64,000 nucleotides of DNA from Malacoraja senta (Eukaryota), in NCBI GenBank assembly GCA_038087875.1, contig CM075991.1, forward strand, positions 10,170,001 to 10,234,000. The letters run 5' to 3'. Under the pieces are notes generated by a model that saw only the letters and a program-made list of their open reading frames with translations, made no database searches and was not told the DNA's origin. Both the position numbers and the translations under genes were made by a program. Position 1 is the stretch's first letter, and the number at the start of each line of letters is the position of its first letter. Below are positions 9,387 through 22,472 of the stretch, piece by piece.

Positions 9387-9571
9387 ATAGACACATAAAG
9401 CTGGAGTAACTTACTCAGCGGGTCAGACAGCATCTCTGGAGGAAAGGATTAGGTGACGTTTCGGGTCGAGACCCTTCGTCAGATTGAAGAGCGCTCTCTG
9501 ACCCGCTGAGTTACTCCAGTTTTTGTGTCAATCTTCGGATTAAACCAGCATCTGCAGTTCCTTCCTACACA
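9387..9571. mobile_element. Fold-back Penelope pseudo-LTR module with an intact hammerhead core on the minus strand
   Basis: Inverted arms (GACACATAAAGCTGGAGTAAC...GTTACTCCAGTTTTTGTGTC). 9455-9482 reverse complement is CTGACGAAGGGTCTCGACCCGAAACGTC. Confidence 0.75.
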
Positions 9572-9909
9572 TCTTTAGTTGCTCATAGCAGTCATCTGAA
9601 AACTCGTTCCAAACTCAATTGAACCCATTTTGTTTACTTTGACTGCATTCCCAGTCAGAGGAAGCAGCTAATCTGAACTACCCAAATCCCTTCTCTGCAA
9701 AGCACCATCTCTTGCACCTCTGTGGATGTTTTCTAAATGCGCATTTTGTAGACTAATGTTTTGTCTTTTTTTAGTCTCTCTGTAGTCTTTTTGTCCTTTT
9801 CTCTGCATCGTGTCATTTGTGTACACATATTTTAGCGTGCTGTCTACGCCTACGCGCCCAACACGCTTCTGTGAGCATCATTTCACCACACTTGTGTATG
9901 CGACAATAC

Positions 9910-10215
9910 GGGCGGCACGGTGGCACAGCGGTAGAGTTGCTGCCTCACAGCGCCAGAGACCCGGGTTCGATCCTGACCACGGGCGCTGTCTGGGCGGAGT
10001 TTGCACGTTCTCCAAGTGCCCGCATGGCTTTTCTCCAGGATCTCCAGTTTACTCCCACACTCCAAAGATGTACAGGCTTGTAGGTTAATTGGCTCGATAC
10101 AAATGTGAATTGGAATCTAGTGTGCGAAGGATAGCATTAATGTGCGGGGATTCGCTGATCGGTGCGAATGGCCTGTTCCCGAAGGATAAGCTGTATCCCT
10201 AAACTAAAACAAACT
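9910..10215 (+). mobile_element. tRNA-derived SINE
   Basis: GGGCGGCACGGTGGCACAGCGGTAGAG...GGTTCGATCC (A and B boxes), conserved body, CTAAA tail. Confidence 0.85.
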
Positions 10216-10751
10216 AATAAACAGGACTTGACTTGGTAACCAGTAACTCCAGTTTCTGAGGTCACTCAGTCTCACCGGGAACTGTATCATCATTGCTGCA
10301 AGGTTTTTCCCCTCCCCAAGCAATGACCTAGATGATTATCACACATACCGACCTAGGGGCAAGGAATCAGTCAGTGTAAACAATATGCATCATGTACGTC
10401 AGACATGCTCAGCTATCAATAGCTAGGATTACCACCTAGAATCAAGCAGAGCTGTGAACACCACTGGAGTGAGTGATTCAGCTTTCTTCAACCTGCCACA
10501 AGACTAGAACCCACTTGCACGGAAACAAGAATGCTCACCTTCAAAGTAACGTCTTGACATTGTTCCTGCAAGGCCAAGTCAGCCAGTTCCTAATTAACCA
10601 AGTCTGAAGACCTGAAACGTCACCTGCCCGTTCCCTTTAAAAAATATCGTCTGACTTGCATTGTGTGCAAGTAAGATCCTCAGTAAGATGGAGACACAAG
10701 ACACTGCAGCCTGCTGGAACCTGGCGCAAAAAAGCATCTCAGTGGGTCGAG

Positions 10752-11327
10752 GGTGTGTGTGGTGTATGTATGTGGTGTGTGTGGTGTGGTGTGTGGTGTG
10801 TGGTGTGTGTGTGTGGTGTGTGGTGTGTGGTGTGTGGTGTGTGGTGTGTGGTGTGTGGTGTGTGGTGTGTGGGTGTGTGGGTGTGTGGGTGTGTGGGTGT
10901 GTGGGTGTGTGGGTGTAGGTGTGTGTGTGTGTGTGTGTGTGTGTGTGTGTGTGTGTGTGTGTGTGTGTGTGTGTGTGTGTGTGTGTGTGTGTGTGTGTGT
11001 GTGTGTGTGTGTGTGTGGTGTGTGTGTGTGCGCGTGTGTGTGTGGTGTGTGTGTGGTGTGTGTGTGTGTGTGTGTGTGTGTGGTGTGTGTGCGCGTGTAG
11101 TGTGTGTGTGTGTGGTGTGTGTGCGCGGTGTGTGTTGTGTGTCTGTGTGTGGTGTGGTGTGGTGTGGTGTGTGTGTGTGTGTGTGTGTGTGTGTGTGCGT
11201 GTGCGCATGTGTGGTGCATGTGTGTGTGCGTGCGCAAGTGCGTGTGTGTGTGCGCGCATGTGTTGTGCGTGTGCGTGTGTGCGCACATGTGTTGTGCGTG
11301 TGTGTGCATGGGTGTGGTGTGCGTGGT
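10752..11327. repeat. Compound (GT)n/(GTGTG)n microsatellite
   Basis: Directly visible. Confidence 0.97.
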
Positions 11328-12079
11328 GAGAGTGAGATAGGGGGTGGGGCCTATCCTACCACTGATTGCTGTGCTCACCAAGTCATTGGGTATTTTTAAA
11401 GCAGAGGTCATCAGTTTCTTGATTAGTAAGGGTGTCAAAGGTTATGGGGAGAAGTCGAGAGAATGGCGTTGAGAGGGAAAGATACATCAGCCATGGCTGA
11501 ATGGCGGAGTAGACTTGAATGGCCAAGTGGCCTAATTCTGCTCCAATGACATGAGTAAACGGCAATCAGAAGCCAACACGGAGGCCGTTTCCTCATTCTA
11601 AACCTACAAAACTGGGACAGATTGGAAGGCGGAGACATGAGGAACTGCAGATGCTGGAATCTTGTGCAATAGACAAAGTGCTGGAATTAGTTCTGGAAGG
11701 ATTGGACAGGTGACGTTTCAGGTCGGGACCCTTCGTTACGCTGACTGTAAGATGCTGGCCGACAGATGGTTTGGGAAGTTGGGGGATTAAATAGAAGTCT
11801 ACCCGGGAAAGGAATAGAGACTTTATCTTATGGTTCTCTCGTAAACTGTGATGCAAGTGATAAGCTCTCCAGACTTTGTTCCTAAGGGCTGTGGGATCAC
11901 ACAATATCCCGCTCCTGAGGCAAACACTTTAATCTTGGCTGACACAATTGAATTGTTGAGGGTATGCTGTGCTGTCAGAGATGACATCTTTTGTGGTCAA
12001 ACCGACCATGACTGATGAGTTGGCCCCAAGTTGGCTTCCCCCACCTAATCTCCTCCACATACTGAATGATTGGGTGGTC

Positions 12080-20160: not shown

Positions 20161-20194
20161 TTCTATGAGGAACAACTGAAAATGATTTTAAATC

Positions 20195-20294
20195 ATCAGT
20201 CTGAAGAAGGGTCTCGACCCGAAACGTCACCTATTCCTTCGCCCCACAGATGCTGCCTCACCCGCTGAGTTTCTCCAGCATTTTTGCCTGCCTT
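20195..20294 (+). mobile_element. Penelope pseudo-LTR module; intact hammerhead core at 20201-20228
   Basis: CATCAGT-CTGAAGAAGGGTCTCGACCCGAAACGTC-ACCTATTCC. Confidence 0.75.
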
Positions 20295-20799
20295 AAATAA
20301 GCCCTGATGAGTTTCGGAGTTACCTTGGGGGAGTAAGATTAGCTACATTCAAAAGCTTTCAAAACATATTCATTAGTAAATTTGCACCCAAGTGTTTAAT
20401 TACTGGAGCCTCACGAACAAGCAATTAATGGATATTCCCAATGGTGATTAATCTATCTTCAGCGTCGGTTTATTTCTGGAGCAACTATGAACCAGTGCAA
20501 GATATCAGGGGAAATTATTTGGCAACATTAACTCCAATTCAAAATTGCACACAAACAAAGATCATTAGTGAGTAATGAACAGACCCCTGGTGAATCTAAG
20601 TGGGTCAGGCAGCGTCTGAGGAGGGAAATGGATGGAAGACATTTCGGGTCAGGACCCAAAACATGTCTGGAGACACAAGGAACCGCTGATGCTGCTTTAC
20701 AAAAGGCTCAAAGTGCTGGAGTAACTCAGCAGGTCAGGCACAAGACACAGATAGGCGACGTTTTGGATTGCGACCATTCTTACAAGCATTCTTCAGACA

Positions 20800-21166
20800 G
20801 ATTGTTAAGGGCTTGGACACGCTAGAGGCAGGAAACATGTTCCCGATGTTGGGGGAGTCCAGAACCAGGGGCCACAGTTTAAGAATAAGGAGTAAGCCAT
20901 TTAGAACGGAGACGAGGAAACACTTTTTCTCACAGAGAGTGGTGAGTCTGTGGAATTCTCTGCCTCAGAGGGCGGTGGAGGCCGGTTCTCTGGATGCTTT
21001 CAAGAGAGAGCTAGATAGGGATCTTAAAAATAGCGGAGTCAGGGGATATGGGTAGAAGGCAGGAACGGGGTACTGATTGGGGATGATTAGCCATGATCAC
21101 ATTGAATGGCGGTGCTGGCTCGAAGGGCCGAATGGCCTACTCCTGCACCTATTGTCTATTGTCTAT
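20800..21166 (+). mobile_element. CR1 LINE 3' end, (TATTGTC)n tail
   Basis: ORF 20768..21055 IVKGLDTLEAGNMFPMLGESRTRGHSLRIRSKPF... Confidence 0.9.
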
Positions 21167-22216
21167 TGATTGTATTCGGGGGTGAGAGAAAGCTGGAAAG
21201 AGATAGGGGTATGGGCAAAGCCCGGCAAGTGATAGGTGGATACAGGTAAGGGTGGGTTTAATGAGCAGATGGGTGGACTTAGGCTGGAAACATTGTCTGT
21301 CCATTTCCTGCCACAGATGCAGCCTGACCCAGCGAGTTCCTCCAGCAGTCTGCCTAGAGTCATAGAGTGATACAGCGTGAAAACAGGCCCTTCGGCCCAA
21401 CTTGCCCACACTGCCCAACATGTCCCAGCTACACTAGTCCCACCTGTCCGCAGTTGGTCCATATCCCTCCAACCTGTCCTTTTTGCTCCAGATTCCAGCA
21501 TCTGCAGGCTCTTGAGACTCCATCACTAGTACATAGTCGACAACTTGAAAAAACACTTGATCAGTAAGGGTGTCAAGTGTGGAGAAGGCAGGAGAATGTG
21601 GTTGAGAGGGAAAGACAGATGAGCCATGATTGAATGGCGAGGTAGACTTGATAGGCCGAATGGCCTAATTCTGCTCCTATAATAAGGTATGAACCATGAA
21701 CTGATGAAAACCCGGTATATCTGTCACAAAGAAATGCACTTCTACTAAACTATTATATCCCTTTGTGGGTTGCTCAGAACCCGTAAACCCGCCTATTGTT
21801 ATATTGCTAGTAAACTTATGCGGTCACAGAATGTGCAAACTCTACGCAAACAGCACCCAAGATCAGGATCGAACCTGGGTCTCTGGCACATTGAACCTGC
21901 AGATCTACCAGCTGCGCCACTGTGCCCCCTCGTTGATCATTCTTACTTTGCGTATCAGCCATGGCTCAGTGGAAAGCACGCTTGTTTTTGCTGCCAAGAG
22001 TTTGGTTCCAACTCCGAGGTTCAACTTCAACAGTGGCGTGGGTTTCCTCCCACACTCCAAAGGCGGACAGGTCGGCAGACGGATTGGCTCGGTAAAAATT
22101 GTAAATTGTCCCTAGTGTGTAGGATACTGCTAATGTACAGGTATCGCTGGTCAGCGCGGGCTCGGTGGGACGAAAGGCCTGTTTCCGCGCTCTGTCTCTA
22201 AGCTCCCATTATAAGA

Positions 22217-22472
22217 AGATAGACACAAAAAGCTGGAGTAACTCAGCGGGACAGGCAGAAACTCTGGAGAGAAGCAATGGGAGATGTTTTGGGTCAGACT
22301 GAAGAAGGGTCTCGACCCGAAACGTCACCCATTCCTTCAGTCTGAAGAAGGGTCTCGACCCGAAACGTCACCTATTCCTTCTCCCCAGAGATGCTGCCTG
22401 CCCCGCTGAGTTACTCCAGCTTTTTGTGTCTATCTACGGTTTAAACCAGCATCTGCAGTTCCTTCCTGCACA
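22217..22472. mobile_element. Fold-back Penelope pseudo-LTR module with two tandem intact hammerhead cores
   Basis: Identical CTGAAGAAGGGTCTCGACCCGAAACGTC at 22299-22326 and 22342-22369. Imperfect flanking repeat CATTA(T/C)AAGA at 22207-22216 and 22477-22486. Confidence 0.8.

Follow-up and report, generated by a model that had tools for sequence, protein, structure and literature searches.

The hammerhead repeat in the window

The stretch analysed here (positions 10,170,001 to 10,234,000 of contig CM075991.1, assembly GCA_038087875.1, of the skate Malacoraja senta; 64,000 nt, hereafter the window) contains many pieces of a short repeat, some of which carry the core of a type-I hammerhead ribozyme. 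With a probability of roughly 0.8, these repeats are remnants of the 3' pseudo-long terminal repeat (pLTR) and tail of Penelope-like retrotransposons (Penelope-like elements, PLEs) with a minimal hammerhead motif, the dispersed copies being most likely inert fossils. Positions in the repeat are counted from C3 of CUGANGA (+1); the predicted cut falls after +28 and the 3' product begins at +29. An earlier note on this DNA had reported seven intact cores, and all of them were found, with the same coordinates and strands. Moreover, precisely these seven were returned from the window by a minimal-hammerhead descriptor written independently (CUGANGA, an additional base as an option, helix II, GAAA, a palindromic NN, UH). 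They are the following, together with the duplicated target that flanks one of them:

9455..9482, minus strand: minimal hammerhead core, helix I of 1 bp, in pLTR copy 9386-9487
14495..14522, plus strand: core in copy 14492-14626, which starts with AGT and ends at the long tail site
15315..15328, minus strand: 14-nt target-site duplication, 3' copy, flanking insertion 15329-15421
15394..15421, minus strand: core of the young GUU subfamily, in the short insertion 15329-15421, which ends at the short tail site
15422..15435, minus strand: 14-nt target-site duplication, 5' copy, flanking the same insertion
19358..19385, plus strand: core in copy 19353-19488, with an inverted partner at about 19262-19346 (minus)
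20201..20228, plus strand: core in solo copy 20196-20294
22299..22326, plus strand: core with helix I of 0 bp, unit 1 of the 43-bp duplication 22294-22381, with an inverted partner at 22216-22299 (minus)
22342..22369, plus strand: core in copy 22337-22475, unit 2 of the same duplication

Copy 9386-9487 (minus) sits head-to-head with an inverted piece, 9488-9573 (plus), and the pair at 9380-9575 is predicted to fold as a single long hairpin (-83 kcal/mol, z -7.9). Copy 14492-14626 is flanked by inverted pieces at 14470-14490 and 14626-14715. The helix I GU of the 15394 core consists of the last two bases of the 5' target-site duplication 15422-15435, and in the 43-bp duplication the junction before the 22342 core falls on TCAGT.

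The abundance attributed to the repeat has been confirmed, although the figure of about 30 pieces was too low: the family comprises 59 pieces (27 plus, 32 minus), scattered across all 64 kb and covering 7.7% of the window, and 26 of these bear a core when up to four substitutions are allowed. The descriptor gave 27 matches in 264 kb and 83 in 664 kb, with none in the reversed 264 kb or in any of 10 Markov-2 simulations. Throughout the 1.94-Gb genome, one exact 30-mer occurs in 14,022 copies and intact cores number 56,799 (backwards-pattern controls: 0), so that the very high genomic copy number supposed for these modules is borne out. The proposed check with Rfam covariance models was also run on the window and gave a different answer, no hammerhead being among the 15 matches at E<=1. 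The repeat is a real and very abundant motif of a known kind, and its host family is probably undescribed; literature searches returned nothing relevant on hammerhead-bearing Penelope elements in skate, on hammerhead ribozymes of cartilaginous fish or on rolling-circle copying and template jumps of Penelope, and Repbase, Dfam or the supplements of papers may already list the family. The motif itself and its home in Penelope pseudo-LTRs are already published, and this part is not new.

The parent element

Two copies of the repeat in the window lie about 100 nt past the stop codon of a GIY-YIG C-terminus, on the same strand:

58588..58773, minus strand: PLE GIY-YIG C-terminus, last 61 codons and stop, 5'-truncated
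58361..58487, minus strand: pLTR/tail copy with G12 mutated, about 105 nt after the GIY-YIG stop at 58588
61117..61260, plus strand: second GIY-YIG C-terminal fragment with stop
61353..61449, plus strand: pLTR copy downstream of that fragment, its core carrying a small deletion

A pyrimidine-rich 3' untranslated region (UTR) separates the stop at 58588 from the copy 58361-58487 (minus). A genome search with the first of these fragments gave 78,290 candidates. Thirty GIY-YIG C-terminus loci were retrieved, 25 of which (six being duplicates of one insertion) have a core 95-116 nt downstream on the same strand; of the other five, three have a damaged core and two have none. Long copies were reached by searching with an N-terminal fragment, and in all 20 retrieved a sense core follows the open reading frame (ORF), an additional core preceding the ORF start in seven. 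The earlier assignment of a minimal type-I hammerhead to Penelope pseudo-LTRs is upheld by these cores, which regularly follow GIY-YIG ORF ends and recur in the flanking direct repeats.

In three of the loci (L083, L084 and L087) stop-to-stop frames of 1,233-1,250 aa lie between direct repeats, the pLTRs, which measure 418 bp in L084 (99.76% identical) and 2,565 bp in L083 (99.96% identical). The motif stands about 100 nt past the stop of an ORF encoding reverse transcriptase (RT), a CX4CxxC linker and GIY-YIG, and again upstream of it, with the ATG at +164. The ORF spans about 1,235 aa and its N-terminal part is proline-rich. The L084 protein, for which 589 homologues were found, displays RT motifs, a CNRKRCNTC linker between RT and endonuclease (EN), and a GIY-YIG-type domain; Pfam places RVT_1 (E 6.6e-6) and GIY-YIG (E 1.6e-3) on it, both below the curated cut-offs, and did not recognize the 61-aa GIY-YIG peptide of the window. 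Searching the genome with RVT_1 was abandoned as a route to the element, being swamped by other RT elements, probably LINEs.

As read from its sequence, the architecture of L084 and its relatives is Penelope-like (EN+), with a single ORF for a PLE-type RT plus GIY-YIG at the C-terminus. Further PLE traits are also found: pseudo-LTRs from partial tandems (the 418-bp and 2,565-bp direct repeats), inverted 5' partners (94 of 123 neighbours less than 50 nt apart lie head-to-head) and an optional tail of 30-40 nt (3' ends bimodal at about +95 and +132). Neptune and Poseidon are the clades reported among vertebrate PLEs (bioRxiv 10.64898/2026.07.22.740005), and the element probably belongs to Neptune: the CX2-5CxxC linker described for Neptune (PMC8557442) is present in L084 as CNRKRCNTC, although Nematis has this motif too. 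With the Neptune PLEs of Craig et al. 2021 (PMC8557442) the skate element shares the single ORF with RT, CX2-5CxxC linker and C-terminal GIY-YIG, as well as partial tandems, the inverted 5'-truncated partner and the 30-40-nt tail. Unlike them, it has a long ORF (about 1,235 aa) with the proline-rich N-terminal part, and target-site duplications are plain in many of its short copies.

Fold and conservation of the core

The traits of the minimal type-I class in the core and in helices II and III are present in the repeat: C3-A9, G12-A15.1, U16.1, H17, an extra base before 10.1 and a palindromic helix III, with a helix II of 4 bp including G10.1-C11.1. The extra A after A9, raised earlier as a caveat, does exist but is no defect: the minimal hammerheads of PLEs conserve an additional nucleotide at this place, between 9 and 10.1 (PMC4209133). 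The other caveat, a helix I of about 2 bp, holds for five of the seven window cores, helix I being shorter still at 9455 (1 bp) and 22299 (0 bp). Genome-wide, 42,613 copies keep the core together with 2 bp, and a contiguous third pair occurs in only 512, a mutation-level count, no subfamily with a 3-bp helix I having been found. Helix I is likewise 2 bp in the Penelope of D. virilis (PMC4209133). A bulged or distal extension of helix I, sought by eye, was dropped, since its registers disagree among subfamilies.

Four subfamilies, chosen by their flanks, were compared over -4..+34. The invariant core positions are common to all four, and six columns vary: two in loop II, two changing U-A to U-G, one C/U at H17 and one in the flank. 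The changes at 11.4, 17 and 1.1 all preserve pairing or the NUH rule. As a stronger test, 80 metagenome loci (L183-L262), probably animal host DNA, were retrieved with the core pattern alone and sorted into 24 groups. A GIY-YIG match lies within 400 nt of the core in 20 of the 80, and none of the 80 shares the downstream flank by BLAST. Helix I reaches at least 3 bp (3-6 bp) in 12 of the 24 groups, with a mean of 2.5 against 1.3 when permuted, and consists mostly of A-U/C-G where the M. senta genome has U-A/G-C.

As regards folding, the hammerhead structure appears in none of nine predicted folds and helix II has a probability of about 0.01. The dimer helices alone contribute -6 kcal/mol, whereas the free dimer reaches -44 to -51 kcal/mol, and the hammerhead fold is energetically disfavoured, costing about 6 kcal/mol. 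Judged by its sequence, the motif is a true member of the minimal hammerhead class with a weak helix I and putative activity. The PLE pLTR hammerheads of Cervera and de la Pena 2014 (PMC4209133) share with it the CUGANGA core, the extra nucleotide before 10.1, G10.1-C11.1, the palindromic 15.2-16.2, sites in both pLTRs and dispersed copies that are mostly solo or on opposite strands. They differ in helix II (6-8 bp in schistosome and fly examples, 4 bp here), in helix I (4-5 bp, 2 bp here) and in abundance, about 4,000 intact cores in coelacanth and about 9,000 in Xenopus comparing with 56,799 here by different search methods.

Copy ends and the proposed start of the element RNA

Ends were counted over 195 pieces in 264 kb, two of the references being 1-2 nt off register. 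At the 3' side, 78 of the 195 end at +90..+101 and 47 at +130..+137; at the 5' side, 45 begin at -4..-1, 14 at -8..-5 and only two at +28..+31. Copies thus have two end sites, which correspond to the tail of PLEs, and for the most part start no further than about 6 nt from the hammerhead; this observation is new, as are the back-junctions and arrays described below. The two 3' end classes agree with published work in which the 30-40-nt PLE tail has been traced to two internal RT start sites (PMC11167929).

Among 249 core-bearing copies, collected with a pattern that favours GT starts, 79 retain 3' UTR, 72 an inverted arm, 91 are solo and 7 duplicated. Target duplications of at least 8 nt flank 17 of 30 solo young copies (shuffled mean 0.9), including the one at 15394 in the window. 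Nine of 37 ORF-reaching copies outside arrays begin at -8..+2, and four of these nine are fold-backs. Moreover, in at least 36, 45 and 14 contigs, respectively, of three public runs, loose ends occur at the A at -2, their flanks being diverse; the four runs used consist of contigs whose RNA status is guessed, and they show no starts, ends or levels.

A somewhat favoured explanation is that transcription starts at the CA of TCAGT (-3/-2) and that internal RT starts followed by run-off mass-produce the short copies. Transcription would begin just beside the hammerhead, so that only AGU would be left for the 5' strand of helix I. The RT of the element would begin internally at +95 or +132 and run off the 5' end of the RNA after about 100 or 135 nt; it may next jump to the RNA 3' end, or circle a circularised RNA, yielding tandem arrays. 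In the Anolis Poseidon element PAc (Frangieh et al. 2024, PMC11167929) the tail is explained in the same manner, by two internal RT starts past the hammerhead, whereas the PAc ORF begins inside the hammerhead and the skate element has its ATG at +164.

Back-junctions and tandem arrays

A pattern joining the tail to the ORF start of a young subfamily has 401 genomic matches, of which 46 loci, all on one contig, were examined. The early ORF (+166 to +284) is rejoined to upstream element sequence in 19 of the 46 (L359 and L368 being read by eye). Six of these loci rejoin at -3/-2, on the AGT before the core (L350, L368, L373, L374, L380 and L386); a further two do so at +5 and +7, nine between -34 and about -700, and the remaining two at +28/+29. 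Of the seven junctions that the first six loci have at -3/-2, four show an untemplated G directly before the start and three an extended A run, as would be expected if a capped 5' end had been joined to a 3' end bearing oligo(A).

Some of these loci are arrays: L347 (unit of 138 bp, 11 matches), L348 (384 bp, 13), L351 (275 bp, 10), L352 (165 bp, 4), L349 (254 bp, 3), L385 (260 bp) and L350. Complete units are identical within L347, L348, L349 and L352, and in six of the seven the array stops on or close to an RT start site (+93, +96, +102, +128, +130, +133), L352 ending at +107. In L347 (G000:C1:27.82 Mb) and L352 (G000:C1:381.27 Mb) units devoid of a core are joined at the predicted cleavage site. 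Under uniform placement of 17 junctions, two such landings have a chance of 0.003-0.006; the ORF start is similar to the sequence at +29, by which the L347 jump may have been guided, in L352 one base is shared, and DNA-level deletion plus expansion may also account for both arrays.

L348, L349, L351 and L385 are head-to-tail arrays of pLTR and ORF start (254-384 bp, 3-13 units) with cores, and appear retrozyme-like by their sequence. The term had been applied earlier to the window repeats, to which it does not extend: leaving aside short duplications, among them the 43 bp at 22294-22381, the window copies occur singly or inverted, and the head-to-tail 150-450-nt repeats with a hammerhead that characterize non-LTR retrozymes are found in L348, L349 and L351 and not among them. 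Compared with these retrozymes (PMC7229834; bioRxiv 10.64898/2026.07.22.740005), L348, L351, L385 and L349 likewise consist of head-to-tail pLTR repeats with a core, whereas the motif is minimal rather than canonical, the arrays are known from the genome alone and they still end at PLE RT start sites. Retrozymes have been reported in one cartilaginous fish (bioRxiv 10.64898/2026.07.22.740005).

The junctions of young copies are likely to record the start of the element RNA, and may occasionally record the self-cut site. It is proposed tentatively, and held to be rather less likely than not, that fossils of the Penelope RNA cycle have been kept in the genome. In this cycle short RNAs, starting with a cap at the edge of the hammerhead or cut by it at +29, would have oligo(A) ends in the early ORF, be joined end to end or circularised and be copied by RT into arrays of up to 13 identical units. 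If so, retrozyme-like arrays would have been caught at birth, with an indirect sign in vivo that a hammerhead with a 2-bp helix I cleaves. The in vivo role of PLE hammerheads has been described as unclear (PMC8557442), and an origin of pLTR tandems and retrozymes via circular templates has been only proposed (PMC4209133). Both questions become countable from the genome alone by means of a young subfamily whose ORFs are intact, which has 401 ORF-start matches and which shows junctions both at the predicted cleavage site and at the probable site of the start.

As a separate observation, 18 core copies at G000:C1:3872239-4035112, among the matches listed, share their upstream flank and lie mostly 2-5 kb apart in two clusters; they probably form a satellite or segmental array that has captured one copy.

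Several points weigh against the interpretation developed so far. The clade call rests on the linker motif rather than on a tree. The four subfamilies are closely related, which makes the invariance of the core among them weak evidence, and the metagenome groups are related too, so that the significance of the helix I permutation test (0/5,000) is overstated. The proposed start, cap and cleavage end are all read from DNA; the 5' starts spread over about 6 nt; a clear cap G was not found in ordinary solo copies (G before AGT in 8 of 19), and the G count at the junctions, four of seven, is weak and drawn from small numbers. Finally, TCAG-T-CTGA is palindromic and resembles a 3' splice acceptor, so that other causes of the 5' hot spot remain.

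Possible cleavage of the element RNA

Genome-wide, 161 matches begin at +29, compared with 117 at the control position +33, and true junctions made up 19 of 20 and 16 of 20, respectively, in the samples taken. After correction for the flank filter and for true junctions, +29 starts are estimated to be in about twofold excess. The idea that copies beginning at the cleavage site form a strong peak was considered and rejected (2 of 195 pieces; 161 against 117 genome-wide). With an excess this small, RNA that had been cut can have served as no more than a minor template, which agrees with PMC11167929; PAc is templated mainly by uncut RNA, and the same is proposed here. Among the minimal hammerheads published so far, monomers do not cleave and dimers do so weakly (PMC4209133), cleavage was seen in one of nine Xenopus dimers tested (bioRxiv 10.64898/2026.07.22.740005), and one PLE hammerhead required the protein of the element, no RNA-seq ends having been found at its site (PMC11167929). 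The PAc cleavage was assayed and is protein-assisted, while the skate element is known from sequence. At nearly even odds, the skate hammerhead would cut after GUC/GUU (+28) only rarely, as a dimer or helped by protein, and most integrated templates would be uncut.

A little less probable is that the hammerhead is vestigial here, its helix I eroded to 2 bp and the motif kept as a promoter or protein-binding element that never cleaves. The rarity of a contiguous third helix I pair (512 copies against 42,613 with two), the 3-6 bp often found in relatives, the fold penalty of about 6 kcal/mol and the scarcity of +29 starts (161 against 117) speak for this reading, as does the finding that core mutants of the Anolis element left in vitro insertion unimpaired (PMC11167929). 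Against it, the subfamily changes at 11.4, 17 and 1.1 preserve pairing or the NUH rule, the D. virilis Penelope also has a 2-bp helix I (PMC4209133), two of the 19 back-junctions fall at +28/+29 and the corrected +29 starts are enriched about twofold.

Other explanations of the short copies

It is on the whole unlikely that the 5' hot spot is not a transcription start and arises instead from RT stalling or folding back at the palindrome TCAG-T-CTGA, or that it reflects a 3' splice site (CAG with a pyrimidine tract) bordering helix I. The head-to-head arrangement of most close neighbours (94 of 123 at less than 50 nt) and the fold-backs at the palindrome in four of the nine long copies starting at -8..+2 would suit a stall, and the 5' end of helix I coincides with the end of the intron in D. 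virilis (PMC4209133). However, 91 of the 249 core-bearing copies are solo, with neither an inverted arm nor a common upstream exon, the shared exon expected of a spliced template being absent among solo copies; A runs and G occur at the -3/-2 junctions, as would suit genuine RNA ends; and none of the 15 public-contig joints listed has a GT..AG joint at the hot spot.

That the 100/135-nt unit constitutes a separate non-autonomous element, whether SINE-like or a retrozyme, copied from short master loci of its own, is improbable. Short copies do far outnumber ORF-start copies (56,799 cores against 401 matches, the latter for one young subfamily), have sharp ends and duplicated targets, and arrays with intact cores exist in the genome. 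Nevertheless, young short copies match the pLTR of full-length elements, each subfamily is also found joined to the 3' UTR and ORF end, and the window copies are without arrays.

Host gene context and possible effects on host RNA

The span that holds the repeats is situated upstream of exon 2 of a GRK5-like gene on the minus strand, at a distance of 3-16 kb:

6434..6529, minus strand: exon matching GRK5 residues 19-48 (exon 2 of the GRK5-like host gene; L107-L111)

No exon 1 turned up in the interval from exon 2 to the next gene, and its two matches (L303, L304) are located on contigs other than this one; the span probably belongs to intron 1 of this gene. The neighbouring genes are one of the SEC23/24 family (L103-L106, plus) and one for a MYST acetyltransferase (L116-L122, minus), both identified by Pfam, the latter ending about 100 kb from the window start, and an EBF-like gene (L144-L148, plus).

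That dispersed sense copies act as working ribozymes cutting host pre-mRNA, as the earlier note had suggested, is very improbable given the lack of sense depletion, the neutral decay of the core, the disfavoured fold and the mere two of seven cores in sense orientation. The core with a 2-bp helix I is retained in 42,613 copies, the span is probably intronic and, for 42 of the 83 strict cores, another strict core on the same strand lies no more than 5 kb away, all of which would allow for it. Nevertheless, the strand-depletion check that had been proposed, run in four genes with identified exons, gave 63 sense against 56 antisense pieces (p 0.58) and 15 against 9 strict cores (p 0.31), both with low power. 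G12 decays like any CpG (90, 78 and 55% kept), and non-CpG core columns are retained about like the flanks. The hammerhead forms in 0 of 9 folds, with a helix II probability of about 0.01. An opposite-strand piece lies within 300 nt of 42 of the 83 strict cores, and a partner core within 500 nt for only six. Of the seven cores, only two share the orientation of the GRK5-like gene, namely 15394 and 9455, the latter with a helix I of 1 bp and enclosed in a hairpin. Moreover, published minimal hammerheads are, as said above, inactive as monomers and weak as dimers (PMC4209133), and one is protein-dependent (PMC11167929).

Since about 7% of the region is repeat, much of it in inverted pairs, double-stranded hairpins would be a likelier effect on host RNA than cutting. 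Fold-back inverted pairs of the repeat are also found in the window at 25288-25437, 47494-47750, 59132-59327 and 32685-32884; they are possible double-stranded RNA or editing substrates, and two of the four yield spurious sub-threshold microRNA matches in Rfam.

Other features of the window and retrieved loci

Two near-identical, frameshifted copies of a Tc1/mariner transposase lie in the window at 4444-5473 (minus) and 33546-34483 (plus). The window further contains a 200-N assembly gap (27039-27238), long GT/CA microsatellites (10753-11325, 27689-28260 and 29569-30404) and a 32-bp minisatellite (30728-31145). Finally, among the retrieved loci there is an open frame at L048:1488-2342, whose end presumably resembles a cysteine-knot domain of the TGF-beta family.

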